Assembly (NCBI GenBank): GCA_000432855.1
Contig: HF990865.1
Span: 1-61,561, forward strand
Direction: 5' to 3'
DNA from: Firmicutes bacterium CAG:822
Lineage (GTDB): Bacteria; Bacillota_I; Bacilli_A; RF39; UBA660
DNA length: 61,561 nucleotides
Positions 6,905-61,561 of the stretch are shown here, in pieces. Under the pieces are notes generated by a model. It had not been told where the DNA came from, ran no database searches, and saw only the letters and a list, made by a program, of their open reading frames with translations. Position 1 is the first letter of the stretch, and each line of letters begins with the position of its first letter. Position numbers and translations under genes: made by a program.

Positions 6905-7255
6905 AATAATATTTTATAAGCCATGTTCTGTTCCTATCTCTAGGCGGCAAACATTTATCTATTGCTAAAAGCAATCCCATAAGAAATTCTTATTCTCTCC
7001 TATTAGGTTCCCCTACCAAAATTTGGGTTTCTTACTTGCGGGGTTTACCACGTTTCACTCTTTTATTTCTAAAAGCATCGTCACTGCGGCACTTTATGAA
7101 GCATCACCATATCCAAAGACTTAGGTTAAGCCTCGCCGTTAGTCAAAAAACTACCATAGGTTATTTTTTCCCTATGCACAAACACTACAGTCATCACAGA
7201 CTGTGTAAGCATGGACTTTCCTCTACATTACTAAGAATGCAGCGTTTGCCAAAAT
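6905..7255 (-). ncRNA. rnpB: RNase P RNA (bacterial, probably type B)
   Basis: The minus strand contains the universally conserved P4 halves GAGGAAAGTCCATGC (about 7213-7227) and ACAGAACATGGCTTAT (about 6916-6931). ATAATATTTT / AAAATATTAT could form P1. The plus-strand ORF 7036-7278 is spurious. Confidence 0.88.
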
Positions 7256-7256
7256 A

Positions 7257-7592
7257 TTATTTATTAGTTTCCCCATAAATGATTTTTTCAAGATTAGAAA
7301 GACGTCTTAATAAATCTGCATTAGACACTTCAGTTGGAGACACATTTCTTAAAACATCCAACTTCGTTCTCGCATTACGAACTTCCTGTTTTAATCTAAT
7401 GTTTTCATCAATTAAATCTTTCTTTTCGCGTTCCAAATCCTTAATCATTGAAATCATTTCATCATAATCACTTATTACTTCATCTAAGAATTTATCTACC
7501 TCTTGGGGTCTATAACCTCTCGTATCGATTTTAAACTCTTTTTCCAAAATATCTTTTGGTGTAAGTAATAATCTTTCTTGAAGCACGGTCAT
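7257..7592 (-). CDS. gpsB: GpsB/DivIVA-domain cell-cycle protein
   Basis: Start moved to the ATG after AAGGAGGGG. LLLTPKDILEKEFKIDTRGYRPQEVDKFLDEVISDY is the DivIVA N-domain, followed by a coiled coil. Confidence 0.8.
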   Translation of the reverse strand: MTVLQERLLLTPKDILEKEFKIDTRGYRPQEVDKFLDEVISDYDEMISMIKDLEREKKDLIDENIRLKQEVRNARTKLDVLRNVSPTEVSNADLLRRLSNLEKIIYGETNK

Positions 7593-38477: not shown

Positions 38478-38495
38478 TTATTTAGACTTTTTTTG
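38465..38495. terminator. bidirectional terminator between the M23 peptidase gene and the paralog array
   Basis: AAAAAAGTCTA-GTTATT-TAGACTTTTTTT overlaps both convergent stop codons. Confidence 0.6.
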
Positions 38496-38972
38496 ATTAA
38501 CTTTTTTTAAAAATTGATTTAATGTTTCTTCAAAACCTTTCCCTCTTTCATAATTAAATTCCTTGCTTTCAACAAAGCCATCATCAAAATCCATATCATA
38601 TACAATATCTACATGTGCCTTTGGGATTTGTTTGGCAAGTTCATATATTAATTTAAGTTGTTTTTCACTGATTTCATCAGGTAAAAATAACATACCATAT
38701 TTACCAACACGATTTCCAGAAATATTAATATATACAACATTATTAAGCCAAGTTAAGAAAAAAATTGGTACATTAGGCTCACATCTATCAGTAATCCTTT
38801 GAAAAATCGAAACATTAGGATATTTATCTCTAGCATAATCTAATAAACAATCTACGTGATAATCACACTCACCTATTGGTCCAACAAAATCAACATGACC
38901 GTCTATATCATCACTTTTATCGTTAGTCCCATTAATAATTACCGCTTTATAATCGTCAATTTTTTTATCCAT
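38478..38972 (-). CDS. paralog 1 of an uncharacterised 5-member tandem family
   Basis: MDKKIDDYKAVIING..YHVDCLLDY..VVYINIS..YGMLFLPDEISEKQLKLIYEL. The start overlaps the upstream stop by 8 nt. Confidence 0.7.
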   Translation of the reverse strand: MDKKIDDYKAVIINGTNDKSDDIDGHVDFVGPIGECDYHVDCLLDYARDKYPNVSIFQRITDRCEPNVPIFFLTWLNNVVYINISGNRVGKYGMLFLPDEISEKQLKLIYELAKQIPKAHVDIVYDMDFDDGFVESKEFNYERGKGFEETLNQFLKKVNQKKSK

Positions 38973-39450
38973 TATATGTCCTTCTTTCTTTTTTTGGAGT
39001 TTGTCTTTCTAAAACAAATTTCATTATTTGCTCCTTCATATTCTCATTTTGTAAAACATCTAAATCTTTACCCAGCACCATACCATCAACTAATGCCAAA
39101 TTATAAATAATCGTTACTTTAAAATCATATATTAAATCAATAAATTGTGACAATGTCTTTAACTGCTCATCAGAAATAGTTCTTGGTAAATATAACATTC
39201 CTCGCATTTCATCATCCACTGATACATTAGTAAATATAATATTATTCAACAAAGATAAATAATAAATTGGCAAATTGGGCTCTTTCATATAATCTATATT
39301 TTTAAATCCAGAAATATTTGGATATTTATGAACACCATAATCAATTAAACACTCTGCATGATAATTAAAATTAAAATTATGACCCAAATAAATAATATTC
39401 CCATTGTCCTCAACACCGCCATTTATAATGGCGACCATATATTCATCCAT
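38965..39450 (-). CDS. paralog 2 of the tandem family
   Basis: Start moved to the ATG after AGGTGA. MDEYMVAIING..YHAECLIDY..IIFTNVS..GMLYLPRTISDEQLKTLSQF. Confidence 0.7.
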   Translation of the reverse strand: MDEYMVAIINGGVEDNGNIIYLGHNFNFNYHAECLIDYGVHKYPNISGFKNIDYMKEPNLPIYYLSLLNNIIFTNVSVDDEMRGMLYLPRTISDEQLKTLSQFIDLIYDFKVTIIYNLALVDGMVLGKDLDVLQNENMKEQIMKFVLERQTPKKERRTYNG

Positions 39451-39454
39451 CAAA

Positions 39455-39940
39455 TCACCTAACTTTCCTTTTAACATGAGGTTTCTTATTAAAGAAGTTA
39501 TCTAATGTTTCACAATTTTCCATACCATCAGAATAATTAATAATGTCCTCAGGATAAATTCCATCTTCTTTTCTAATCAAGTTATAATCAATATAAATTG
39601 GTGTTTTTTCAAATGAATTAAATAAATCATATAAAGACACAACTTGCTTTTCACTAATTTGTTTTGGAATATATAATAAACCATAACCCGGCGAGTGTAA
39701 ATAAACTATATCCCCAATCTCATTTAAATAAACTATAATTTCATTATTATTTTTTTTATCATCCGCATTAATAGTTTCCGCCAACTCATTATAATAAGTA
39801 TATAAATAATCTTTTAAGGCATCTAAATGAAATCTATATTCACTAGCCTCTCCAAAAAAACGAATTGCCCCATCTTCATCTTTAGAACCAGTTATAATTA
39901 TTAATTTATAATCATTAACATTAAACATAACTAAAATCAT
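39455..39940 (-). CDS. paralog 3 of the tandem family
   Basis: ..DYKLIIITG..FHLDALKDY..IVYLHSPGYGLLYIPKQISEKQVVSLYDL. ATGA overlap with the upstream stop. Confidence 0.7.
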   Translation of the reverse strand: MILVMFNVNDYKLIIITGSKDEDGAIRFFGEASEYRFHLDALKDYLYTYYNELAETINADDKKNNNEIIVYLNEIGDIVYLHSPGYGLLYIPKQISEKQVVSLYDLFNSFEKTPIYIDYNLIRKEDGIYPEDIINYSDGMENCETLDNFFNKKPHVKRKVR

Positions 39941-40386
39941 CTCCTATGATGTTTAACCGCCAACCTACTCATATATTCTTCCATTGCTTCTTTTAAAGTA
40001 TAATCATTACCCATGCCTATTGGACAATACATAATTGTATCTCCAACTTGCTTTAAATTATAACATATCCCCACTTTTTTATTACCTAAATCAATATTAT
40101 TCAAAGTTTCTAATTGTTCGTCAGTAAGTACAGCAGGAAAATAAAACATCCCAAAATTCATTTCGTTTAAATAAGTAATATCACCAAACATAGCAATTTG
40201 ATAAGCAAGACGTTCTCCCACATTTCCAACAGTTAAATTGTCTGTCTTAATATCTGGAAAATTTAAATGAATATAATCTAATAGATATTTCACATGAAGT
40301 CTTTGCTCATTAACCATTCCCATCACATGGGGTATTCCACTTTCATCAATTATTGTAACCTTACTATCTATTACTCTTTTATCCAT
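39937..40386 (-). CDS. paralog 4 of the tandem family
   Basis: Start moved to the ATG after AAAGGAG. MDKRVIDSKVTIIDESG..LHVKYLLDY..ITYLNEMNFGMFYFPAVLTDEQLETLNN. Confidence 0.7.
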   Translation of the reverse strand: MDKRVIDSKVTIIDESGIPHVMGMVNEQRLHVKYLLDYIHLNFPDIKTDNLTVGNVGERLAYQIAMFGDITYLNEMNFGMFYFPAVLTDEQLETLNNIDLGNKKVGICYNLKQVGDTIMYCPIGMGNDYTLKEAMEEYMSRLAVKHHRR

Positions 40387-40403
40387 GTACACTCTCCTTT
40401 CAT

Positions 40404-40859
40404 TTACCTTTTTAATCGTGAATTCTTCTGTTCAAAGTATTCATTCATAGCCTCACTCAAATTATATTCACCATCTGCCCCAACCATTTCAAAATTTACA
40501 AATGAACCAAAATCAGTAGGATCAAAACATATCGCAATTTTTTCATCACCTAAATCTAAATTTTCAAGAACTGCAACTTGTTGTCTAGAAAGATTATTTG
40601 GAAAATAAAACACGCCATATTTTAAGCCATCATACACATGATTATAAAAAACTACATATCCAAAATTACCAAAATGATATGCATAGACATCTCTTCGGTA
40701 TTCATCTTTCAACAATGATAATTCAGGCGCTGAAGAATAAGCTTTATTAAAATAATCAAATAAATAATCGACATGAAATGTGCCATCTCCGGCCTTTCCC
40801 ATCGTATTTATATTACCATTATCATCTATTAAAGCAACTTTACAATCTTGAATATGCAT
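40404..40859 (-). CDS. paralog 5 of the tandem family
   Basis: MHIQDCKVALIDDNG..FHVDYLFDY..VVFYNH..YGVFYFPNNLSRQQVAVLEN. RBS GGGTGA. Confidence 0.7.
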   Translation of the reverse strand: MHIQDCKVALIDDNGNINTMGKAGDGTFHVDYLFDYFNKAYSSAPELSLLKDEYRRDVYAYHFGNFGYVVFYNHVYDGLKYGVFYFPNNLSRQQVAVLENLDLGDEKIAICFDPTDFGSFVNFEMVGADGEYNLSEAMNEYFEQKNSRLKR

Positions 40860-40952: not shown

Positions 40953-41383
40953 TTGAAAAAATTTATCATTATATTATTAGCTGTCGGCTTAATAATCACC
41001 GGAATTTTTGTTTTCAAACCTAAAAAAGAAGAAACAAGTTTAACAAAAGTGAAGGTGGCCGAAGTAACCCATAGTATCTTTTATGCACCACAGTATATTG
41101 CTCATTCATTAGGATACTTCGAGGAAGAAGGATTAGATGTTGAAATCATATTAACCTCAGGTGCTGATAAAGTTACAGCCGCTGTTTTATCAGGCGATGT
41201 CCAAATCGGCTTCTGTGGTAGTGAATCAACTATCTATGTTTATAATGGCGGACAAAAAGATTATTTAATAAACTTTGCTGGATTAACTAAAAAAGATGGT
41301 AGTTTCTTAGTAGCCAGAGAAAAAACAGATAATTTTAAATTAGAAGATTTAAAAGGAAAACATATTATTGGTGGCCGTGAAGG
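40953..41383 (+). pseudogene. ABC transporter substrate-binding lipoprotein/SBP (NMT1/SsuA-like), 5' fragment split by island
   Basis: TTG start after AGGAGAGGGG, then a signal/anchor helix, then ..AEVTHSIFYAPQYIAHSLGYFEEEGLDVEI... The frame leaves SBP-like sequence after ..KHIIGGREG and stops 6 codons later. Confidence 0.8.
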
Positions 41384-41475
41384 TCTTCGGCTGGTAAACT
41401 TATGATAAAATTTTTACTAAAAAAATATCATAACTTTTTATGCCGATGGGCTTACCGGTTACCAAACTTATAATA

Positions 41476-43038
41476 CTATGCCAATTTAAACTTATAATGA
41501 ATTTCTACTGTTTTATCTTCACTTATAAGTATCTTATCAATTAGATTTACTAATAAATTTCTATTTGGTTTTTCAAAAGATAAATATTCGTTTATCTTTT
41601 TTAATATTTCTTCCTTTTCTTTATTATCATCTTCTGTATCAATATTTTTAAGTTCTTCTTCTAACTCATCTCTTTGATTTTTCCAAGAAACTATTTCATC
41701 TTTGTATTTTATTGTTAAACGGTTAAACATTTCCATATCAATATTACCACTTAACTTATCTTCATATATTTTGTCTATATATGAGTTATTAGTTCTAATT
41801 CTTTTATCTAATACATTGATTTCCTTTTGTTTTTTAATTTTAATATCATTTTTCTTTCTTTCTTCTTCTAACTTATTAGAAAATGAACTGCTATCTACAT
41901 ACTCCTTGCACATCTTTTTAATTTCTTCTAACACAAGATTTTCCAATTTTTTATAATTACAACTGTGTGGAGTACATAAACCATATTTAGAATGAGATAT
42001 ATAATAAGTACAACAACAGTAATATCTTTTCCCATCGCTACTTTTATTTATACCTATTGCGTGTCCACATTCTTTACATACCATAAAGCCAGAAAGTAAT
42101 TGAATATTATTACCAGTAGGTTTGTTTTTGTTTTTCTTTAATAACTCCCCGACTGTATCAAATACTTTTTTATCAATAATTGCTTCGTGGGTATTTTCTG
42201 TAATTATCCATTCTTCTTTAGGCGTTCTAATTTCTTTTTTAGACTTATAATTCAACTTTTTTCTTCTACCTTGAGTAAGATTTCCGATGTATGTTTCATT
42301 TGTAAGCATTTCTTCTATTGTCCTAGGACACCATAATTCATAAGCCGTAGATTTCACACCTCTATTAAGATTTGCATAAACACTAGGGGTAGGAATATGC
42401 TCATCAGAGAATATATTAGCAATTTGCCTTGGGCTTTTACCATTATATGCTAAATCAAACATTCTCTTAATAATAGGTCTAACTTCCTCATCAACAATAA
42501 TTTTATGCTTATCATTAGGGTCTTTTTTATAACCATATACTGCTTTCCAACCTAAAAACTGTCCTTGCTCCTTTTTGGCTCTTACAACTTTTCTAATTTT
42601 CTTAGATGTATCTTTTAAATAGTAATCATTAAACATTAGTTTAAATTGTAAAAACTCTAAACCTGGTGTTTCGTGCAGTGTATCAATATCATCATTTAAA
42701 GCAATATATCTTATACCTCGTTCGGGGAATATTCTTTCGATATATTCCCCCATTGAGATATAATCTCTACCCATACGAGATAAATCTTTGGTAATTATAG
42801 TATTAACCTTACCATGTTCTATATCTGTTATTAGTTTTTTCCAAGAAGGTCTATCAAAATTAGAACCAGTAAAACCATCATCGACATATTCATCAACATA
42901 TTGTAACTTTTCTTTTGTCTTCTCTAAGAATAGATGTAATAAATCTCTTTGATTTGTGATACTCTCGCTTTCCATATTATCGCCATCTTCACGAGATAAC
43001 CTAATATAAAGAGCAACATTAAATGTCTTACCATTCAT
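41476..43038 (-). CDS. large serine recombinase (integrase)
   Basis: Resolvase domain NVALYIRLSREDGD with the catalytic Ser, then a recombinase domain and a Cys-rich zinc ribbon (CKECGH..CCC..C). The C-terminal coiled coil has IYEDKLSGNIDMEMF (DUF4368-like, from memory). Confidence 0.9.
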   Translation of the reverse strand: MNGKTFNVALYIRLSREDGDNMESESITNQRDLLHLFLEKTKEKLQYVDEYVDDGFTGSNFDRPSWKKLITDIEHGKVNTIITKDLSRMGRDYISMGEYIERIFPERGIRYIALNDDIDTLHETPGLEFLQFKLMFNDYYLKDTSKKIRKVVRAKKEQGQFLGWKAVYGYKKDPNDKHKIIVDEEVRPIIKRMFDLAYNGKSPRQIANIFSDEHIPTPSVYANLNRGVKSTAYELWCPRTIEEMLTNETYIGNLTQGRRKKLNYKSKKEIRTPKEEWIITENTHEAIIDKKVFDTVGELLKKNKNKPTGNNIQLLSGFMVCKECGHAIGINKSSDGKRYYCCCTYYISHSKYGLCTPHSCNYKKLENLVLEEIKKMCKEYVDSSSFSNKLEEERKKNDIKIKKQKEINVLDKRIRTNNSYIDKIYEDKLSGNIDMEMFNRLTIKYKDEIVSWKNQRDELEEELKNIDTEDDNKEKEEILKKINEYLSFEKPNRNLLVNLIDKILISEDKTVEIHYKFKLA

Positions 43039-43086
43039 CTTTTAACTCCTTTCTCGGTAGGACACATTAACAAATATATTATAGTA

Positions 43087-43191
43087 TTATTTACTAAAAG
43101 AACCAATCTCTAAGCAGTATTCTATTAGAAACTCCTCCATTATTTGTTGAAGTGTCTTGCCATTTTCATTGAAAACATTAACAATCTTCAT
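43087..43191 (-). CDS. 34-aa ORF upstream of the integrase
   Basis: MKIVNVFNENGKTLQQIMEEFLIEYCLEIGSFSK*. ATG start, but no clear RBS. Confidence 0.25.
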   Translation of the reverse strand: MKIVNVFNENGKTLQQIMEEFLIEYCLEIGSFSK

Positions 43192-43245
43192 AAGAAACCA
43201 CCTAATTAAACTTATGATTTAATTAAATCTATAATACTTATAGAC

Positions 43246-43722
43246 TTAAAACGGGTCTTCTTCTGTATCAATGAATTTACCATTCTCATCATACTTTACC
43301 CTTGGATTTTGTAATTCCTTTTTATTCATCACATTTTCAAGAAAAGTACCATCAAGTAGCATATCTTCGCCTAAAGTTCCTTGATTAATTGTTATTATCT
43401 TTGTATCTTCATCCTCTAATATTGTATAAATTGCTACTAGTTGATGGAGACATTCTGTTAAATCGTTTACATCGCAAGTAATTAAGTAATCAAATTCTCG
43501 GTTTCCTATATTCCTCAAAAAATTCCTCATAGTATTTGAAAAATACGGAAAATAACACCCATTACTATCAAAGTATTTTTTTACAATATTGCAATTGTGT
43601 TCTTCACAGTATTTAACTAGGATTTCTTCTTTTTTCTTCATTTCATCTAAATCACCATCTTCATATCTAATATATAAAGCAACATTTTCAAAACGTTGAT
43701 TTCCTTTCTTTTTAGTCTTCAT
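43246..43722 (-). CDS. resolvase-domain-only paralog lacking the catalytic Ser (1 of 3)
   Basis: FENVALYIRYEDGD..ILVKYCEEHNCNIVKKYFD..DYLITCDVNDLTE..TKIITINQG. The N-terminal strand is near-identical to the integrase's TFNVALYIRLSREDGD, but the LS is missing. Confidence 0.7.
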   Translation of the reverse strand: MKTKKKGNQRFENVALYIRYEDGDLDEMKKKEEILVKYCEEHNCNIVKKYFDSNGCYFPYFSNTMRNFLRNIGNREFDYLITCDVNDLTECLHQLVAIYTILEDEDTKIITINQGTLGEDMLLDGTFLENVMNKKELQNPRVKYDENGKFIDTEEDPF

Positions 43723-44146
43723 TTTTCAACACCTCCAAATCTTTAAAAGAATTTCTATAAATTTTACCTTGCTTAATTGTTTCTATCTCAAAATGTTCTC
43801 GGCTGAACATATCAAAAATCACATTAAACTCGCTAATATTACTACATAATTCAAACATGTCATAGATTATGATTTTATCTAGCTTAGAATAATAACCAGT
43901 TGAATACCTATAAATGATATCCACAACACATTTTAATTTATAAGGTAAATAATCACTTTTACTATTCCTTACGATTTCTTTAATTTCATATTGTTTTTCT
44001 TCACAATACTTTTTCAATTCTTCCTCTTTGTCACAATCTATACTTAAAAACTCACTATTATCATTTCCATCATAATAGTTTTCCGAATCATTATAGATAG
44101 CATAGATTACCACTCTTTCTTGATTAGTTTTTTTTGCTTTTTTCAT
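43712..44146 (-). CDS. resolvase-domain-only paralog lacking the catalytic Ser (2 of 3)
   Basis: ERVVIYAIYNDSE..ELKKYCEEKQYEIKEIV..KIIIYDMFELC..FEIETIKQG. Overlaps the upstream gene by 11 nt. Confidence 0.65.
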   Translation of the reverse strand: MKKAKKTNQERVVIYAIYNDSENYYDGNDNSEFLSIDCDKEEELKKYCEEKQYEIKEIVRNSKSDYLPYKLKCVVDIIYRYSTGYYSKLDKIIIYDMFELCSNISEFNVIFDMFSREHFEIETIKQGKIYRNSFKDLEVLKNED

Positions 44147-44169
44147 TTTCTTTTTCCTCCATTATATTT

Positions 44170-44568
44170 TTAACTTATTATTTCAAGGCTACTATCGAAA
44201 TTAAAATCCAATACATATTCGCCTTGTTTTATTGTTTCAACAATAACATCTACTTGAAGCATATATTCACATATCGCTATTTGTGAATGTAAACCATAGT
44301 TTAAATCATTCAATTCATATAAAATTACTTTTTCAATTTTATGTTTTTTACTCAAATCAATTATTGTATTATACATTTTAAAAATTGCTTTATCCCACAT
44401 AATGTCATCTAAATCAATGTCATTGCTACCTCTGAAAATTTGAACAATTTTGTAATCATTATTTTTACAATAATTTTTCACTAATTTTTCCTTTTCTTTA
44501 TCTCCGTATGGAAAATATACAACTACTTCTGTTTTTTGTTTTTTCAAATCTATTACCTCCCTATTCAA
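44170..44568 (-). CDS. resolvase-domain-only paralog lacking the catalytic Ser (3 of 3)
   Basis: TEVVVYFPYGDKEKEKLVKNYCKNNDYKIVQIF..KVILYELNDLN..VIVETIKQG. Confidence 0.65.
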   Translation of the reverse strand: MNREVIDLKKQKTEVVVYFPYGDKEKEKLVKNYCKNNDYKIVQIFRGSNDIDLDDIMWDKAIFKMYNTIIDLSKKHKIEKVILYELNDLNYGLHSQIAICEYMLQVDVIVETIKQGEYVLDFNFDSSLEIIS

Positions 44569-44677
44569 ACAAAATAATGTTTCGCGAATAAAAATTTACA
44601 TTTTTTTGCTTGCAACATAAGAATATCAAAAAAAATATGGTATAATAAGGAAAAAGCAAAATACTTTTTTTAAGAAA

Positions 44678-45580
44678 GTGTCCGACGCATTATATAGAAA
44701 AGGAAAAATAGATATGTATTATTTTAAATTTAGAGAAGAATTAAGTAAAAATAGGAAAAATATGCCAAAAATATCTTTTGGATATGACTTAAAAGAAAAA
44801 AATAAACCAATATATGATATGTTAGTTTACTTTGATAATTTAACCTCAAATGCAAAAAAAGAATTAGATAAGATATTTGAATACTCAAAACAATTCTCAA
44901 CTAATGGAATAAATAAAGAGGCATGGATAAGGTATGTTGCTGCCTATAAAATAGTTATTCCTGCTATGAGTAAAAAAATTTTGAGAAATGTGCCTCAACC
45001 AACAAATGGTTCTATGGTTTCAATAAAATATGCAGAAAACAAAAAAGAAAAGGAATTACCTTTTAATGATTATAATTCAGTATTCCCCACAATTCCAAAC
45101 ACTGCACCTAGTTTATTTGAAAAACAAATACAATTTAATAAACAAGGTGCCATTGTTACCTTAACTATGTGTAAGGAAGGGACATACGAAAATGATATAG
45201 ATTTACTTTATATGGTTTTAGATTGCTTATTTTCTACAACTATTCCTTATTATATTAAAAAGTGTGAGCTCGAACTATGTGGAAAATATTTTGTACATTC
45301 ACTACCTAATAAGCGAAAATGCAATAGAATGAGATTTGTATATGAGAAACAAACAACTTGTGTTGATGCTGTTAACACTCTTTATCAGCATAAAGAATAT
45401 AGAAGAATAATGCGAAAAGATGCTAAATATTTAAAACACTTTCACAATGATGCAACAAGATATGATATAGATAAATACAATGATGAAAAAAATATAATAA
45501 AAAGTGCCTGTATAAAAAAATTAAATATGAATGACTTTGAAATCTATATAGATAATTTTTATCAGAGTAATAAATTATAA
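44678..45580 (+). CDS. hypothetical protein with C-terminal Cys-rich region
   Basis: The only long plus-strand ORF in the left half of the island. A TGgTATAAT extended -10 lies at about 44636-44650. An alternative ATG start is at 44714. The Cys-rich region is CELELCGKYF..KCNRMRFVYEKQTTC. The 3' end overlaps the resolvase gene by 6 nt. Confidence 0.5.
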   Translation: MSDALYRKGKIDMYYFKFREELSKNRKNMPKISFGYDLKEKNKPIYDMLVYFDNLTSNAKKELDKIFEYSKQFSTNGINKEAWIRYVAAYKIVIPAMSKKILRNVPQPTNGSMVSIKYAENKKEKELPFNDYNSVFPTIPNTAPSLFEKQIQFNKQGAIVTLTMCKEGTYENDIDLLYMVLDCLFSTTIPYYIKKCELELCGKYFVHSLPNKRKCNRMRFVYEKQTTCVDAVNTLYQHKEYRRIMRKDAKYLKHFHNDATRYDIDKYNDEKNIIKSACIKKLNMNDFEIYIDNFYQSNKL

Positions 45581-46165
45581 CTTAATCATATTATAAAAAG
45601 TATTAGGTTTTAGTCCTAGTAATTCCATTGCTTCTTTGCTTTTAATCTCTTTATTTTTCCAACGGCTAACCACAATGTCAAAATCTTGTGGTTTTTCTAT
45701 TCTAGGTCTTCCAAACTTAACTCCATTATTTTTAGCATTAGTAATTCCTTCTTTTTGTCTTTGCTTTATAAAAGTTCTTTCTTGTTCAGCGACATAACTT
45801 AATATTTGTAATACTAAATCACTAATAAAAGTTCCAAGCAAATCTTTATTCTTCCTAGTATCTAATAAAGGCATATCAATAACAACTATATCTGCCTTAA
45901 TATTTTTAGTAATATCTTTCCATTCATCAATGATTTGATTATAATTTCTGCCAAGTCTATCAATAGACTTAATAACCAATAAATCATTTTCTCTTAATAT
46001 ATGTTTTAATGTAATGTAATTTTCTCTATTAAAATCTTTACCACTTTGCTTATCAACATAAATATCTCTCTCATCAATACCATATCCTTTAAATGCTACT
46101 AATTGTCTTTCTTCGTTCTGCTCTTTGCTACTAACTCTAGCATAGCCAAATATTTTACTTTTCAT
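45575..46165 (-). CDS. small serine recombinase (resolvase/invertase) with C-terminal HTH
   Basis: MKSKIFGYARVSSKEQNEERQ.. catalytic motif, SIDRLGRN, and ..EQERTFIKQRQKEGI. Confidence 0.9.
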   Translation of the reverse strand: MKSKIFGYARVSSKEQNEERQLVAFKGYGIDERDIYVDKQSGKDFNRENYITLKHILRENDLLVIKSIDRLGRNYNQIIDEWKDITKNIKADIVVIDMPLLDTRKNKDLLGTFISDLVLQILSYVAEQERTFIKQRQKEGITNAKNNGVKFGRPRIEKPQDFDIVVSRWKNKEIKSKEAMELLGLKPNTFYNMIKL

Positions 46166-46171
46166 ATAAAC

Positions 46172-46402
46172 CTACCTCGCCAAATAATCATTTGCTTCTT
46201 TTAAAACGTTATCAATTATGGAATCATTAACTAACTCATTATAATTAACCTTAATACATTTTCTTTGAAGCTCATCTATAAAATGTACTAAGGCAATAGT
46301 ATAAGGAAAATAATGCTCATTTTCTTCTATGCCAGTTACTAAGGCATCTACATAACCATCACATATCCAATCAACCAATTTTATTAAAATTGACTTATTC
46401 AC
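46172..46402 (-). CDS. 76-aa hypothetical protein upstream of the small resolvase
   Basis: GTG start 9 nt after AAGGAGG (VNKSILIKLVDWICDGYVDALV..). The longer 117-aa ORF in the track has no RBS. Confidence 0.45.
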   Translation of the reverse strand: MNKSILIKLVDWICDGYVDALVTGIEENEHYFPYTIALVHFIDELQRKCIKVNYNELVNDSIIDNVLKEANDYLAR

Positions 46403-46528
46403 TTTATGACACCTCCTTACCATAAATATATAATATATGACTTTCAAAAAAGATACGAGCCGTTTATTTAAAAAAGTAGTAAAACTTTCCAAATATTTGA
46501 AAATAGGTAAGGGCAGTTTTAACAATAC

Positions 46529-46563
46529 AAAAAAGACTTAAATTCTATTAAAATCTAAGTCTT
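46529..46563 (-). terminator. terminator immediately after the reverse transcriptase gene
   Basis: Stem AGACTTA / TAAGTCT, followed by TTTTTT on the minus strand. Confidence 0.65.
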
Positions 46564-46580
46564 TATAAACCTACACAATT

Positions 46581-47888
46581 TTAAACAGGGATATTTCTTA
46601 TAGTATCCATAGCAATTTTAACAAGACTGTCCAGTTTATTTTCTTTAGCAAACTTTAAAACAGAATAATGAAATTCATTATAATAATTTGTTTGTAATAA
46701 AAATATTAACCTCTCTATAAATATTTCTTTTTCTTCTTCATTTATATACCCATATACTTTTTTTAAATAAAACAAACCATTATGTAGCAAAAAATCATCC
46801 GTAGTTACTATTGATAAAATTCTATCTTTATTTTCCTTAGAATAGTTATTCAAGCCAGAAGTTAACATTTTTCTAAGAATTATATCTTCTCTAAATTTAA
46901 CATTATTATCTTTTAATGCAAAAAAAGTATTCGCTGCACTATCGTAGTTTTCTTCCAAAATATCATTTATCATTTCATAGCCATAATATGTTTCTAATTC
47001 TTCCATAGTATATTTATGAACTTTGCTAGCATTTACATTTAAACCAATTTTATTTAACTCATTACAAATACTCAACATTATTCTATTTATATCAGTATCA
47101 TTCCTCGCAAAAATTATTTGGTCATCTGCATATCTTACATATTCAGCCCCTTGTTCTAAGCATAATTCACTAATAATGCTATCATAATCTTGCAAGTAAA
47201 AATTAGCCAATAATCTGGATTGGTCACCAAATTCACTTTGAGGGATACCAACAGTTTTATAATTATAGTTATCAATAGATTTATTCCAATATTTCAAAAA
47301 ATATATTAGTAAATATACTATTTGAGATTTTTTTCTTCCGACCGTTGCTAATAATTTCTTTTCTAAAATATTCAAATTTATATTATCATAAAAATTGGCA
47401 ATATCTAACGAATATGCTACATCATAAACATCAGTTCTAATTTTAGCCCATACTATATTGGAAAATTCCTTCCAGTTTTTATTCCATAACTTTGGGTTGT
47501 AGCTGTTTGTAACATACTCAATTTCTAAATTTTCTAATTCTTTTATCGCATTACCTAATCGCCAGCCACCAAAAGTTCCGTCTATTCTATTAGTAGCAAT
47601 GTCTTCTTCTAGCAACTTTACTAAGAAAAAATATAATGCTTCATCTCTAATTGTTAAACATGGAATAATACGAGCTACATTATTATTTTTATATGTAAAT
47701 ATTCTGCCTCTTAAAATAGAAGGTGAGTAATTTCCATTTATTATATCCTTATATAAATCAATTAAAGTATTTTGAAACTCTTGTTTACTCATTTTTATAG
47801 GAATTAATGTTTCTTTTACAACTTTTTTATAAAAACTATTTGAAAAAACATTTTCAAAACTTTCAAAATCACTAACTATATTATCCAT
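46581..47888 (-). CDS. reverse transcriptase (YADD), stand-alone, Abi/UG-like rather than group II intron or obvious retron
   Basis: RT motifs in order: ARIIPCLTIRDEALYFFLVKLL, TFGGWRLGNA, SLDIANFYDNI (motif A), GIPQSEFGDQSRLLANFYL (motif B), VRYADDQIIFAR (motif C) and LNKIGLNVNASKV (motif D). A ~135-aa helical C-terminal region follows. No maturase-type X domain or endonuclease domain was recognised by eye. Confidence 0.85.
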   Translation of the reverse strand: MDNIVSDFESFENVFSNSFYKKVVKETLIPIKMSKQEFQNTLIDLYKDIINGNYSPSILRGRIFTYKNNNVARIIPCLTIRDEALYFFLVKLLEEDIATNRIDGTFGGWRLGNAIKELENLEIEYVTNSYNPKLWNKNWKEFSNIVWAKIRTDVYDVAYSLDIANFYDNINLNILEKKLLATVGRKKSQIVYLLIYFLKYWNKSIDNYNYKTVGIPQSEFGDQSRLLANFYLQDYDSIISELCLEQGAEYVRYADDQIIFARNDTDINRIMLSICNELNKIGLNVNASKVHKYTMEELETYYGYEMINDILEENYDSAANTFFALKDNNVKFREDIILRKMLTSGLNNYSKENKDRILSIVTTDDFLLHNGLFYLKKVYGYINEEEKEIFIERLIFLLQTNYYNEFHYSVLKFAKENKLDSLVKIAMDTIRNIPV

Positions 47889-47989
47889 CTAATCACCCCA
47901 TAATACTCTTTATTATAACATTAAAATACTAATTATAAGATGGTTTAGTAACATTTACTATTATTTTTTTATTCCTCGCAAATTTCACT

Positions 47990-48028
47990 AAAAAAGGGTA
48001 ACCCAGTATAATTTATACTAAGTTACCT
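47990..48028 (-). terminator. terminator after the ADP-ribosylglycohydrolase gene
   Basis: GGTAAC..AGTATA-aat-TATACT..GTTACC compound stem, followed by TTTTTT on the minus strand. Confidence 0.65.
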
Positions 48029-48104
48029 AAACTACCTTAAACTTACTAATATGCTGTTATTTTTACTAACTATTCAATTTTTAAAACATATATTTTAAAA
48101 CACA

Positions 48105-49079
48105 TTATTTTATAGCATTATAATAGTCATTGCTTAATTTCAATAAATAATCTTTTTTAACTATACTATCTAACCACTTGCTAGGCAAATTACCATAATA
48201 TATACCACTTAAACCACCAACTAATGCTCCAATAGTATCACTATCATTTCCTAAATTGATAGCTTCAATGACACATTTATCATAACTATTATTATTTATA
48301 AAACACCATACTACTGCCTCTAATGTATCAACAACAAAACCCATACTACTAATACTATCTACATCTAATTTACTAATATCGTTATTTAATAATCGGTCAT
48401 AATACTTTATATTTTCCAAGCTAAAATACTTTCTATAATTATATTTTTTTATATTACTATAAGCATTTTCTTTTTCTTCGCCACTTAATAACTCTATAAC
48501 CAACAACACATATATAAAACAACCTAATACACTTATTTCGTGACTATGAGTAAGTGATGATATATCTTTTACTAAATGATATATTTCATCATCATTTAAT
48601 TTCTTATAATAACAATAGTAAGCAATAGGTAATATTCGCATTAAACTACCATTACCATTATAATTAAAACCTTTCATACCACAATCAATTATCTTTTCAT
48701 ATCTTTTATTATGATAATTTCCTAAAGCAAAAAATGTTGCTCTGCCAATGCCGAATGCTTTATCTATGGCAATAAAATCTTTATTTGAAACCCATAAAAT
48801 AAAATTATCCATAATACTTTCATAATTTATTTTGCCTTTATTATCTATAATTGATTTCATTGTAGCAATAACCATACTACTATCATCAGACCAAACACCT
48901 TTTGCACCAATTCTATCACTACTAATCATATCGGTAACTTTATTATTTTTAAATAAATCTCTTTTTTTGAACTCTAATGGAACACCTAAGGCATCACCAA
49001 TTATAAAACCCATTATACCATTTATAACAATATCTTTATTCATTACTTTATACCTCGCAAATTCTACATCTATAAGCAT
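48105..49079 (-). CDS. ADP-ribosylglycohydrolase (ARH/DraG family)
   Basis: GFIIGDALGVPLEF, WSDDSSM, GNGSLMRILP and GNDSDTIGALVGGLSG are the family's metal-site motifs. Confidence 0.8.
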   Translation of the reverse strand: MLIDVEFARYKVMNKDIVINGIMGFIIGDALGVPLEFKKRDLFKNNKVTDMISSDRIGAKGVWSDDSSMVIATMKSIIDNKGKINYESIMDNFILWVSNKDFIAIDKAFGIGRATFFALGNYHNKRYEKIIDCGMKGFNYNGNGSLMRILPIAYYCYYKKLNDDEIYHLVKDISSLTHSHEISVLGCFIYVLLVIELLSGEEKENAYSNIKKYNYRKYFSLENIKYYDRLLNNDISKLDVDSISSMGFVVDTLEAVVWCFINNNSYDKCVIEAINLGNDSDTIGALVGGLSGIYYGNLPSKWLDSIVKKDYLLKLSNDYYNAIK

Positions 49080-49161
49080 TTCTATAAATATATTATAATT
49101 TATTAAAACTATAAAATAAAGCCATAGAACTAACTAAAAAGGACTAATAATAAGCCCTTAA

Positions 49162-49764
49162 TTATAAATCAATATCTACTTTTTCATTACTTAATCTTTT
49201 AGTTAATTTATTTACAAATAATTGTCCCCAACTGTCATATTTTCCTAAACCAAATACAATAGATTTGATTTCTTCGCTATTTTTATCTTTATAAATAATT
49301 ACTAAAAAATAATTATAATAGTTTTTTACTTTTTGACCTATACCAGAGATCGCTCCCAATGCACCTAAGCCAACCATACCACCAACTAATGACCTAGCAA
49401 ATACATTTTTATTTTTAGTATCCATTTGTTTTTTACTCATAATACCAGCATTTACTATTCTATCTAATGATATATTAAAATTACCAATATTAGATATAAC
49501 TGTTAATTCCTCATCATTTACATTTAAAGAACAATTTTCTTCCTCTCGCAAACTGCTTATACCTTCAATATGTTTAATATCTTTTAATTTTAATACTTTC
49601 ATTTTCTTTTCTTTAATAACTTCTTGTTTTACCTCTTTTTGTTTAATAGTGTTATCTTTAACTACCTTATCTTTATTGCCTTTATTCTTAACTGCTTTAA
49701 CAATTAAGTAAATAGGTAATACTACAACTGCGACCCCCAACAACATATAAAATAAATCTTGCAT
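49162..49764 (-). CDS. membrane-anchored protein with Lys-rich linker and internal glycine-zipper segment
   Basis: N-terminal TM helix (LLGVAVVVLPIYLIV), a K/E-rich linker, and a second hydrophobic Gly-rich stretch (LVGGMVGLGALGAISGIG). Confidence 0.5.
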   Translation of the reverse strand: MQDLFYMLLGVAVVVLPIYLIVKAVKNKGNKDKVVKDNTIKQKEVKQEVIKEKKMKVLKLKDIKHIEGISSLREEENCSLNVNDEELTVISNIGNFNISLDRIVNAGIMSKKQMDTKNKNVFARSLVGGMVGLGALGAISGIGQKVKNYYNYFLVIIYKDKNSEEIKSIVFGLGKYDSWGQLFVNKLTKRLSNEKVDIDL

Positions 49765-49898
49765 TTCTTACACCTCTTTCTTTTCTCAACACTTATTCCT
49801 CTTTATTTCGCCGATTATCTCGGCATTATTACCATTTTTCCATTAACTCAATATATTTATATTATTTTCGCCAAACTTACCTAATATCGCTGTTAAAC

Positions 49899-50801
49899 TT
49901 ACTTATTCAAATAATCTAGGAATACCTCTTTAAATCTATCAACCATATCCAATAGCCATACATAAGAACTAGCATTGTCTTTACTACTATTATTGCAACT
50001 AATTCTATTAACTTTTCTATCTTCTAAATATTCCCACTCTAAGCCATTTATCTTATCATCAATTTCAGTTCTATACTGCTCTAACTTTTTATAAATCTCA
50101 TCATTAAATATTTCTAATTGACACCTAATCATATCGCTATTAACACTATGAACTAATTTAATTTTATAATCGCTTGAACCAATACGAATAACATACCAAT
50201 TATAAATTGATGGTCGCTGACTAATATATGTTTTGTCTTTACTTTTGGCATAATCAACAAACCCTTGCCAATATTCCATTTGTTTTAATTCTAAATCGCT
50301 AACATTTTCTTTTGACTGCTGTTTTAATACTTTCGCCCAATTATTAGGTTCACATATTACTTGAAACTTAGGAGCAATAGGGGAATTATCTATTTGCCAC
50401 AATTCCACCTTTACTAAAAATATATTTATCTTTTCAAAACTATTATCATTTAACCACTCAACTGCTTGTTTATGTTCTTCGTTAACATCTTTTACTATCC
50501 ATATAGCAATATCAGCATCTAAACCAGCAGCATATACTAACATTTTTCCTAAATGGTCGTGATTAGTATTCTCTAATTGATTTTCAATAACTATCTTCTT
50601 ATTACTTTCTGTATCTCTTGCATAAATATCAACATTATATCTTCCCACACTCATTTCCGTTTCTATAACCTCAATATCAATGCCTATCTCTTTACTTAGC
50701 AAAGCAATATTTTCTTTCCTAGCCAACCATCTTGTAAAATCCAATGCTTCATGCCTCCAAACTTCTCTTAACTCAATTTTTTCTAATTTTCCAAGTTCCA
50801 T
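49899..50801 (-). CDS. PD-(D/E)XK-like nuclease-fold protein with DUF4268-like C-terminus
   Basis: Start moved to the ATG after GGTGA. ..VGRYNVDIYARD..KIVIENQLENTNHDHLGKMLVYAAG.. is the signature I associate with this family (from memory). Confidence 0.55.
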   Translation of the reverse strand: MELGKLEKIELREVWRHEALDFTRWLARKENIALLSKEIGIDIEVIETEMSVGRYNVDIYARDTESNKKIVIENQLENTNHDHLGKMLVYAAGLDADIAIWIVKDVNEEHKQAVEWLNDNSFEKINIFLVKVELWQIDNSPIAPKFQVICEPNNWAKVLKQQSKENVSDLELKQMEYWQGFVDYAKSKDKTYISQRPSIYNWYVIRIGSSDYKIKLVHSVNSDMIRCQLEIFNDEIYKKLEQYRTEIDDKINGLEWEYLEDRKVNRISCNNSSKDNASSYVWLLDMVDRFKEVFLDYLNK

Positions 50802-50923
50802 ATATAAAATCACCAATATCATTATAACATATTTTATATAATTTTAGACATATAAATATAACTAATATTGCTATCACTCGTTTTTAATATCCTTACAATT
50901 ATATATAGAGGAGGGCGATATAT

Positions 50924-51253
50924 ATGGAAAACAACTTAAAGCAAATACGAAACTCAAAAAAATTACTACAAACTAAAGTTGCTATGGATTTGAATATTAC
51001 CCAAGAAACTATATCTTCTTATGAAACTGGTAGAGTATTCCCAAGTTCCGATATGCTTATTAAACTTGCCAACTACTACAACACATCTATTGACTACTTA
51101 TTATGCCGAACTAAATATGATATGCCTATTGATGATGTTAAACCAAATAATATTTCCGATACTGACTTTATTTTACTTAACAAAATCAATAAATTATCTA
51201 CTACTAATAAAGCCAAAGTAGAAGGTTATATAGATGGCTTAAACGACCATTAA
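50924..51253 (+). CDS. XRE/cI-type HTH transcriptional regulator
   Basis: LKQIRNSKKLLQTKVAMDLNITQETISSYETGRVFPSSDMLIKLANYYNTSIDYLL. Divergent from the nuclease-like gene. Confidence 0.85.
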   Translation: MENNLKQIRNSKKLLQTKVAMDLNITQETISSYETGRVFPSSDMLIKLANYYNTSIDYLLCRTKYDMPIDDVKPNNISDTDFILLNKINKLSTTNKAKVEGYIDGLNDH

Positions 51254-51496
51254 ACTGTTAATGCTATATATCATTTAAAATATATGGCATTTTATTTTAC
51301 CTTAATTTATACTAATGCTTATTTTAAACAATACTATAAATACTTACTCAAATAATATCTATATAAACCTCTTTAATTATCTTTTAATCTTATCTTATAG
51401 TCCTATCTATAATATCATTATAATATCTAAATAATATTATATATCGTGTATATTATATGATAGTAATAATTACTAATACTTTCACTCTAATTCCTT

Positions 51497-52291
51497 TTAA
51501 AATGGGCTATCTTCTTCCACAATTCTTCGGCGTAAACTCATATTTTCCTGTACTTTATTATTTTTTTCTCTTAAATCGTAGTTATCTTGTATCTTAATTA
51601 ACTGGGCTTCTTTCATAAACTTATCGACCATTTTCTTATCTTGTTCTTTGGTTATATTAAAATAAAAGTTCATAATATCTCTATACTTATCTTCTAGTGC
51701 TAATCGTTTTTCATTACCTGTACTCTTTGCGTATCTTAATGCTGTTTTGCATTTCATATAAGTATTATATAAATCTTTTAAACTATAACCTTTCGGAACA
51801 ATGCCATTGCTATTATAATTACAAAACAATATTTCATCGGCTTGGTTAATAAAATATTCTGCTTTCTTAATATTGGTATTCTTCTTATATGTTTTCTTGT
51901 CATATAATTTAGTAACATCAAAATCTTTATATTTCATGCCACCATACCAATTCTTGTCTATGTAATTCTTTATTTCTTCTCTAAAAGCATAAGATGGCTT
52001 AGATACTAATAAAATATGTAAATGCCAATCTACCTCTATATTATTTTTATAAGGATGTATCTCTTTTACCTTTTTAGGGCGACCAACTTTCCCAGTATGT
52101 TCATAATGCACATAGGTACTATTGCCCTCGGTATTACTAATACATACCATTGCTGTTGCCGACCAATTCTTTTTCTTACAAATATATCTAATCTTTTCAA
52201 TTAGTCTTTTCGCATATCTTCTCGCCTCATCTTTATCTTTAAACTTAATATCAATATCAAAACTAGACATTCCTAACTTACTTTTTGCCAT
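51497..52291 (-). CDS. possible HUH-type replication/mobilisation initiator
   Basis: DWHLHILLVSKPSYAF..NYIDKNW resembles the HUH motif 2 of pC194-type Rep proteins, and a later Tyr lies in NIKKAEYFINQ. Weak motif-level evidence only. Confidence 0.3.
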   Translation of the reverse strand: MAKSKLGMSSFDIDIKFKDKDEARRYAKRLIEKIRYICKKKNWSATAMVCISNTEGNSTYVHYEHTGKVGRPKKVKEIHPYKNNIEVDWHLHILLVSKPSYAFREEIKNYIDKNWYGGMKYKDFDVTKLYDKKTYKKNTNIKKAEYFINQADEILFCNYNSNGIVPKGYSLKDLYNTYMKCKTALRYAKSTGNEKRLALEDKYRDIMNFYFNITKEQDKKMVDKFMKEAQLIKIQDNYDLREKNNKVQENMSLRRRIVEEDSPF

Positions 52292-52388
52292 TTTTCCACC
52301 ATTTTTACAAAAACTTAAATGTTAATGTGTTCTACCTTTCCTTATTTTATAAGCATTTTTTACATCATAAGTTTTAATGCCGGTGGGG

Positions 52389-52944
52389 CGGTATGCCTGC
52401 TATGACCTTAGAATATGCCTTAAATATTAATGGTATAAAAAGTGATGAAACAAATATTGACACCAGTATTGACTTTGCTTCTATGTCAGGTGCCTTCATC
52501 GGCGGCACTGGCGATTATGTCGCTCTATTTGAGCCAACCGCCTCAGAACTTGAAAAAGAAGGATATGGTCATATTGTCGCTTCTATTGGCGAATTAGGCG
52601 GCAATGTTCCATATACCACTTACAATGCTAAAAAAAGCTATATTGAACAAAATCCAGATGTCATTGAAGGCTTTACTAAAGCTATTCAAAAAGGTTTAGA
52701 CTATGTCCATAACCACACAAGTGAAGAAATAGCTAAAAACATCAAAGATTACTTCCCTGATACATCTGATGAAGACTTGATCACAATAGTTCAAAGGTAC
52801 AAAGATATCGATTCATGGTATGATACGACCTATATTTCTGAAGATGACTTTAAGCACATTCAAGAAATAGTTAAAAACGCTGGTCAGTTAGATGAAAATG
52901 CACCTTACTCAAAATTAGTCAATAACGAATACACTGAAAAATAA
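52389..52944 (+). pseudogene. ABC transporter SBP, 3' fragment
   Basis: GMPAMTLEYALNINGIKSDE..ALFEPTASELEKEGYGHIVASIG.. continues the 40953 fragment. Its stop overlaps the ATPase start (ATAATG). Confidence 0.8.
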
Positions 52945-58213: not shown

Positions 58214-58322
58214 AAGACTTGCAACGTCCTATTTTCGCATACACTATCGTCGGCGTAGAAGTGCTTAACTTCTGTGTTCGGGATGGGAACAGGTGTATCC
58301 ACTTCGCTATCGTTACAAATCA
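58214..58322 (-). rRNA. rrf: 5S rRNA
   Basis: The minus strand contains ..ACGATAGCGAAGTGGATACACCTGTTCCCATCCCGAACACAGAAGTTAAGCACTTCTACGCCGA... Ends are approximate. Confidence 0.9.
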
Positions 58323-58390
58323 AATATAGAGAAATAATTCTCTGAAAACATGGTAACGTAATAAATATCTCATTAGAGAAAACAATTTAT

Positions 58391-61309
<2,919 letters not shown>

Positions 61310-61504
61310 ACCATTTGATTGTTTTCCTAATTTGATGAGATATTCTAATACAATATACAAGTTACACTCATACATCATAATTACATTACCAAGTTTTCAA
61401 AGAACTATTTCCAGAAAAAAATTCTGTTTGAGAGAATGATCTCTCAAAACTAAGCAAAATGTTTTTAAATAGCTAGATACGTATAAATATAAATCTTTCT
61501 CCAT

Positions 61505-61561
61505 AGAAAGGAGGTGATCCATCCCCACCTTCCGGTAGGGATACCTTGTTACGACTTCACT
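61505..61561 (-). rRNA. rrs: 16S rRNA, 3' end only (gene continues beyond the window)
   Basis: Minus strand reads AGTGAAGTCGTAACAAGGTATCCCTACCGGAAGGTGGGGATGGATCACCTCCTTTCT. Confidence 0.95.

Follow-up and report, generated by a model that had tools for sequence, protein, structure and literature searches.

Class 1 of the UG/Abi reverse transcriptases (RTs) is a clade of 24 groups in which the RT is fused to helical repeats (Mestre et al. 2022 NAR, PMC9226505). UG13b is one of the 42 UG/Abi groups in that work; it was split off UG13 by phylogeny and length, and a defence function was predicted for it from inspecting individual loci (PMC9226505). Protein priming has been shown for AbiK and Abi-P2 (PMC9508834) and for DRT4 and DRT6 (PMC12783706), and PMC13174585 describes Class 1 DRTs as synthesising DNA untemplated, whereas Class 2 DRTs use a non-coding RNA (ncRNA). 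Here, we analysed an RT gene of Firmicutes bacterium CAG:822, located on contig HF990865.1 of assembly GCA_000432855.1 (positions 1 to 61,561; this whole stretch of 61,561 nucleotides is called the window). The RT is almost certainly a UG13b, Class 1 enzyme, and the interpretation we favour, with reservations, is a stand-alone anti-phage abortive-infection gene encoding an RT-like DNA polymerase of the Class 1 UG/Abi type.

At the family level, the 435-aa protein matched the PADLOC model RT_UG13b (PDLC03750) with 434.6 bits (E 1.1e-130), its residues 7-423 aligning to positions 2-417 of the 430 in the profile. The runner-up was UG19 (102 bits, E 8e-30), whose match spans residues 22-421 and includes the C-terminal domain, followed by UG21 and UG13a. 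Length and architecture also fit UG13b: relatives have 430-470 aa, and Pfam detects RVT_1 and no further domain in the 435-aa protein. A previous sequence-only reading of this DNA could not place the protein in a named group and proposed that an insertion in motif B and a short C-terminal domain may mark a new clade. The full-length profile match supplies the group, and both supposed marks turned out to be family-wide. The motif B stretch PQxEFGDQSRLLAN is near-invariant in a 177-member UG13b alignment covering many phyla, with G214, P216, Q217, D222, S224, R225, and N229 each conserved in at least 97% of members, and the short C-terminal domain is common to the whole family. Compared with group II intron RTs, this motif B carries a 2-residue insertion and a Pro-to-Arg change. 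Judged from its sequence, the RT is an ordinary member of a catalogued family and not a new clade.

UG13b membership was judged by hidden Markov model (HMM) discrimination as a proxy for a phylogeny of RT motifs 1-7. We assign UG13b to Class 1 because the text of PMC9226505 lists it neither in Class 2 or Class 3 nor among the unclassified groups, and because Class 1 groups are among its nearest HMM neighbours: UG19 and UG21 are named as such there, and UG9, UG23, UG7/Drt8, UG22, UG34, and AbiA appear in the Class 1 sections. The family is large, with 309 proteins at E <= 1e-5 in a word-indexed search, some 135 clusters (50% identity, E <= 1e-30) in a set of 1.84 billion representatives, and 80 loci in species-level genomes. 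The hosts of these loci are Clostridia, Bacilli, Bacteroidota, Cyanobacteria, Patescibacteria, Proteobacteria, Planctomycetota, Verrucomicrobiota, Actinomycetota, and one Thermoplasmata archaeon.

The gene and its predicted signals, including the terminator of the upstream ADP-ribosylglycohydrolase (ARH) gene, are as follows (positions in the window; residues for the protein).

46581..47888, minus strand: UG13b (Class 1 UG/Abi) RT coding sequence, 435 aa, an uninterrupted open reading frame (ORF) starting with ATG.
Residues ~1-294: fingers and palm, with the catalytic YADD at 253-256.
Residues 109-129: disordered acidic loop.
Residues 295-431: 10-helix repeat domain.
47912..47920, minus strand: extended -10 promoter element TGTTATAAT, read from the sequence and conserved in relatives.
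47894..47899, minus strand: ribosome-binding site (RBS) GGGGTG, 5 nt 5' of the ATG; relatives have GGAGG at the equivalent site.
46529..46564, minus strand: intrinsic terminator of the RT gene, a 15-bp AT-rich hairpin with a U-run (dG -12.7, z -2.5), kept in two element variants (L009 and L020; L and P numbers are our handles for relatives).
47990..48027, minus strand: intrinsic terminator of the upstream ARH gene, a 14-bp hairpin (48027-47997) with T6 (dG -16.6, z -3.9).

The ORF and its motif series are as first described, with LDIANFYDNI (161-170), GIPQSEFGDQSRLLANFYL (214-232), and YADD (253-256) all present and conserved. The lack of a maturase or endonuclease domain also stands, since RVT_1 (residues 151-304, E 9e-14) is the sole Pfam match and NCBIfam agrees. 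Both terminators said to bracket the gene are real hairpins. The one of the RT gene, at 46564-46532, was skipped by a consensus scanner due to having fewer than three G-C pairs; the one of the ARH gene starts 78 nt past the ARH stop codon and is predicted to insulate the RT unit from read-through. The promoter is real and conserved too, but lies about 6 nt from the position first estimated, and its placement implies an mRNA leader of only ~15-20 nt. TGnTATAAT and GGAGG are kept in four element variants (the window, L009, L020, and L100) despite their differing upstream genes. With two flanking terminators and its own conserved promoter and RBS, the RT gene holds as a self-contained transcription unit. 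It is also intact, under purifying selection, and functional, as 23 or more metagenomic contigs (one labelled human gut metagenome) encode an identical protein and dN/dS is 0.09-0.20 against relatives of 75-86% identity.

At the structural level, an AlphaFold2 model built with a 34-sequence alignment (pLDDT 86, pTM 0.84) showed fingers and palm to about residue 294, the disordered loop, and nothing but helices between 295 and 431. The C-terminal domain, when modelled separately, reached pLDDT 95 with ten helices, and in the model this helical-repeat domain stands in the place of the RT thumb. With Foldseek against the PDB, the top full-length matches were DRT4/UG15 (9vdv, TMq 0.58; 9l9s, 0.55) and DRT6 (9wy8, 0.59), followed by AbiA (0.50-0.53), AbiK (0.49), and Abi-P2 (0.41-0.48), all five being Class 1 enzymes; scores of 0.38-0.48, largely through the palm, were usual for RTs of group II introns, retrons, and DRT2. 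A PDB sequence search with the RT gave matches at palm level only. The proposal of a UG/Abi-type single-gene RT with a helical C-terminal extension is borne out by the HMMs, the model, and the Class 1 structural matches.

The likeness to individual systems differs in degree. UG13b itself is the RT's own family, with the same length, invariant motifs, and a stand-alone gene in defence contexts; only its place on an integrative element with a serine recombinase, in a gut Firmicute of low GC, sets this member apart. UG19 resembles the RT across the N-terminus, RT, and C-terminal domain, but it carries or pairs with a HEPN-like C-terminal module that is absent here, and the score gap is ~330 bits. 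DRT4 (UG15) and DRT6 (UG12) share fingers and palm with helical repeats for a thumb, a single gene, and no need of an ncRNA, and the DRT4 priming residue, Tyr125, sits in a palm loop just before helix alpha5, the topological place of the Tyr-bearing loop 109-131 of the RT. However, identity to DRT4 and DRT6 is 11-14%, the RT is ~60-100 residues shorter, its loop tyrosine is not invariant, and its sequence search finds neither enzyme, save DRT6 at E 0.0016. The lactococcal and P2-prophage enzymes AbiK, Abi-P2, and AbiA have the same domain plan (Foldseek probability 1.0) and perform protein-primed, template-independent synthesis of single-stranded DNA (ssDNA), although they are larger (~480-600 aa), belong to another HMM family and, in the case of AbiA, have an added HEPN domain. 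Their priming tyrosines lie in a fingers loop (AbiK and Abi-P2) or in a linker (AbiA), where the RT has Y301, Y302, and Y304. Group II intron RT/maturases provide the nearest solved palm by sequence (E 6e-15) and share motifs 1-7 and the motif 1 tyrosine (Y54), whereas the RT lacks their thumb/X maturase domain, DNA-binding/endonuclease domain, and intron RNA and differs in motif B as described above.

Regarding genomic context, defence genes are enriched around UG13b RTs. The commonest context is directly after methylase or specificity genes of type I restriction-modification (R-M) systems, in at least 14 of 78 UG13b loci, and Pfam confirmed it for L060, L065, L070, L071, L075, and L078. A 75%-identical relative (P0020) likewise follows type I R-M genes, an 82%-identical one adjoins AbiEii, Fic, and a Z1-domain protein, and those of 46-48% identity are followed by a type II restriction endonuclease or a Hypoth_Ymh/PD-Lambda-3_B-like protein; SRA-HNH was also found among the neighbours. 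Clustering of the three neighbours on each side over the 78 loci gave no universal partner gene. No UG13b relative was found among the IMG/VR and INPHARED phages, and the PLSDB plasmids held distant RTs only. Altogether, we regard the RT as quite probably a defence gene.

In a sub-clade of 47-48% identity (five loci, L015 and L024-L027), a 283-284-aa Hypoth_Ymh protein lies 47-52 nt after the RT. Its best match is PD-Lambda-3_B (E 7e-64), with a weak one to a HEPN model, and a DUF1016 nuclease comes next in L015. This protein may be a separate neighbouring PD-Lambda-3 system or a HEPN-type effector recruited by these RTs. We discarded it as a universal RT partner, as it is confined to the one sub-clade.

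By analogy with AbiK, Abi-P2, AbiA, DRT4, and DRT6, we propose a mechanism to which we give about even chances, or slightly better. The RT would oligomerise into trimers or hexamers, one of its own tyrosines would act as primer, and ssDNA would be polymerised in untemplated fashion. In infected cells, the ssDNA would accumulate thanks to a phage factor, for instance an ssDNA-binding protein blocking host exonucleases, and this would arrest the cell and abort the infection. Candidate priming residues would be Y125 and Y130 in the disordered palm loop and Y301, Y302, and Y304 in the linker between the RT and the repeats. Every UG13b member has at least one tyrosine in the disordered loop; Y125 and Y130 are 79% and 73% conserved overall and invariant in the Firmicute clade only. 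Y54 seemed promising at 100% conservation, but it is the canonical tyrosine of RT motif 1.

Several points weigh against this interpretation. The Class 1 assignment is built on elimination, nearest-neighbour HMMs, and a moderate TM-score (~0.58) and not on a phylogeny. Besides Y54, no tyrosine is invariant in UG13b, whereas the priming tyrosine of DRT4 is absolutely conserved. Searched alone against the PDB with Foldseek, the C-terminal domain gave no significant match (E > 0.26) and no specific one to the repeat domains of DRT4 or AbiK; the list consisted mostly of TPR/IFIT, designed helical-repeat, PUF, and HAT proteins. Such a result fits the alphaRep description, under which these domains have a type of fold in common but little else. 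The Class 1 enzymes DRT3b and DRT7 make defined, not random, products. An RNA template supplied in trans may also be compatible with the sequence data, and we found no experiment in the literature on defence or polymerase activity of any UG13b member.

In another reading, UG13b would be a mechanistically distinct Class 1 enzyme making a defined product instead of random ssDNA. We see this as unlikely. Here, the near-invariant, atypical motif B, at the site handling deoxynucleotides and primer, and the conserved acidic disordered loop 109-131 would together dictate the product. Such a product could be protein-templated or a homopolymer, by analogy with DRT3, DRT7, and DRT9.

It is improbable that the RT is RNA-templated, resembling either a retron RT or the Class 2 enzymes DRT2, DRT9, or DRT10, and copies an adjacent dedicated ncRNA. 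Many DRTs need an ncRNA, the gap upstream of the RT is 216 nt in the window and 150-470 nt in some relatives, and the 108-nt stretch 5' of the ATG folds slightly better than shuffled sequences (z -2.2). However, folding of the 5' region was on the whole unremarkable, this stretch holds the promoter and RBS, the leader is short, and in upstream and downstream alignments of six contexts only the promoter, RBS, and terminator were conserved within the element family, and nothing beyond it. Rfam gave no intron, retron, or other ncRNA match over the island, even permissively to E <= 1, in line with the sequence-only reading, and over the whole window at gathering thresholds it detected rRNAs, one tRNA, and class B RNase P only. 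Furthermore, the RT start is at most 15 nt from, or overlaps, the upstream gene in ~28 of the 78 non-redundant loci (intergenic distances are approximate, neighbour ORFs being called as the longest ATG-only ORFs). Relatives often lie within type I R-M operons, with stop and start codons overlapping on one or both sides, and several loci are tight on both sides, such as L071 and L072, between hsdS and hsdR, and L021, L055, L060, and L078. This packing makes dependence on a flanking ncRNA gene unlikely, and it fits the generalisation on untemplated Class 1 synthesis quoted above from PMC13174585. Finally, NCBIfam scores were far below the cut-offs (Drt2, 54.8 vs. 390; Drt3a, 41 vs. 200; Drt3b, 23 vs. 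350), and the structural matches favour Class 1.

The remaining alternatives concern the element that carries the RT, whose parts are listed below (strand where assigned).

41396..52374: carrying integrative element, ~11 kb, splitting an NMT1-family ABC substrate-binding gene and with imperfect inverted repeats at its ends.
40953-41405 and 52393-52944: fragments of the NMT1-family gene on either side of the element.
41476-43038: large serine recombinase, 520 aa.
45575-46165: small resolvase, right edge of the cargo slot.
46172..46402, minus strand: 76-aa ORF; in every element variant, it and the small resolvase delimit the cargo slot on the right.
48105..49079, minus strand: ARH, left edge of the cargo slot; gene callers start it at 49043 (312 aa).
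49899-50822, minus strand: DUF4268 protein, full-length match to PADLOC PDC-S11 (E 3e-102).

The element has a GC content of ~25%, compared to ~30% in the flanks, and occurs in the same target gene in at least three genomic backgrounds. It belongs to a family of ~11-kb serine-recombinase integrative elements (the window, L001-L005, L009, L100, and L113-L122), with a backbone of a Rep-like gene, an HTH_3 regulator, DUF4268 or a 213-aa gene, a 200-aa membrane protein, ARH or Macro, the 76-aa ORF, the small resolvase, and the large serine recombinase. The slot after ARH or Macro holds a UG13b RT, an ApeA_NTD1-like gene with Fic (PDC-S04), DUF4379, unknown genes, or nothing. Thus, a 95%-identical ARH is followed by the ApeA_NTD1-like gene and the Fic protein matching PADLOC PDC-S04, an 88%-identical one directly by the 76-aa/resolvase pair, leaving the slot empty, and a 63%-identical one by two unrelated genes. 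In the RT relatives of 86% and 79% identity, the gene immediately 5' of the RT encodes a Macro domain in place of ARH. As ARH relatives keep the same backbone with other cargo or none, gene order indicates that ARH/Macro is backbone and that the RT is cargo in a hotspot between ARH/Macro and the 76-aa/resolvase pair. This position lends weight to the view that the RT is a defence gene which acts autonomously and can be exchanged. The initial view of a mobile island with other defence-like genes is supported: DUF4268 is, by its profile match, a second candidate defence gene on the island. ARH is not linked to the RT.

An RT serving the element itself, in replication, transfer, or addiction, instead of host defence, has little to commend it. 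The element does carry recombinases and a Rep-like gene with an HUH-like HLHILL motif, seen by eye. Against this, sister elements have other cargo or no RT in the slot, and most members of the RT family lie elsewhere than on such elements, namely in the R-M operons and defence islands of a wide range of phyla; the family is absent at useful similarity from the phage and plasmid collections searched.

A two-gene system, in which de-ADP-ribosylation by the adjacent hydrolase would control the RT or its DNA product, is very improbable. In its favour, two unrelated ADP-ribose-removing folds take the place just 5' of the RT: the window has ARH there, whereas P0007 and P0014 have Macro, at 47-53 nt. 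The Macro proteins of these two loci share 70% identity, so that they have diverged about as much as the RTs. However, the three ARH relatives above are followed by other genes or nothing instead of the RT, RT relatives at 84%, 82%, and 75% identity lack ARH or Macro, no ARH/Macro was found in the other 80-odd UG13b loci, and a terminator separates ARH from the RT in the window. ARH/Macro was accordingly rejected as an RT partner, the RT relatives outside the element family having neither.

Lastly, the idea that the RT is what remains of a group II intron, retron, or diversity-generating retroelement can be dismissed. In sequence, group II intron RTs give the best alignment to the palm, but the group II intron and retron RT models score 74 bits vs. 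a cut-off of 300 (TIGR04416) and 40 vs. 235 (NF038233), the protein has neither a maturase nor an endonuclease domain, there is no intron or other RNA by Rfam, no conserved structured RNA adjoining the gene, and no long template/variable repeat pair on the island, and the full-length UG13b family is conserved under purifying selection.

Other features of the element deserve mention. The Macro genes occupying the position of the window ARH lie at 3958-4455 in L009 and 6444-6953 in L100, and the window ARH also matches the phage family phrog_6572 (E 4e-66). This suggests that the element itself needs de-ADP-ribosylation, perhaps against an ADP-ribosylating toxin or defence. The N-terminus of the DUF4268 protein shows, by eye, a PD-(D/E)XK-like nuclease motif. 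At 43246-44568 (minus strand), the N-termini of three tandem small ORFs (158, 144, and 132 aa) resemble the catalytic domain of serine recombinases, and the 158-aa ORF has a weak Resolvase match (E 4e-4). They lack the catalytic serine (YIRYEDGD, YAIYNDSE, and YFPYGDKE vs. the usual Y-x-R-x-S) and may be degenerate resolvase-like regulators or directionality factors. The 264-aa protein with the HLHILL motif (51497-52291, minus strand), conserved at the element end, had no Pfam or PHROG match and may, from its motif, be a rolling-circle Rep or a relaxase. In L117-L119, spoIVA is interrupted by a sister element whose large serine recombinase is a different one, with SpoIVA_ATPase/middle on one side and SpoIVA_C on the other. 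Intervening elements occur in sporulation genes of Bacillus and Clostridium, and this insertion resembles them.

Outside the element, five tandem paralogous ORFs of ~150-170 aa with no annotation (38478-40859, minus strand) lie just left of the insertion site and also adjoin the element in L002; they look like immunity-type or similar small proteins. The window further contains a class B RNase P RNA (6912-7257, minus strand) and an rRNA operon with 5S, 23S, and the 3' end of 16S (58216-61561, minus strand), which mark the host as belonging to the low-GC Firmicutes or their relatives.

PADLOC would already label this RT gene, so the find itself adds little. The carrying element is useful separately, as a small serine-recombinase family with a clear hotspot for the exchange of defence genes. 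The RT is a compact (435 aa), self-contained, and convenient representative of UG13b, a widespread group that ranges from Firmicutes to bacteria of candidate phyla and one archaeon and frequently lies within type I R-M operons. To our knowledge, no two of the Class 1 enzymes solved to date share a priming site. A study of UG13b would reveal whether this group, too, makes DNA by protein-primed, untemplated synthesis, and which tyrosine primes it; if UG13b instead made a defined product, this would be a new product type among defence RTs.

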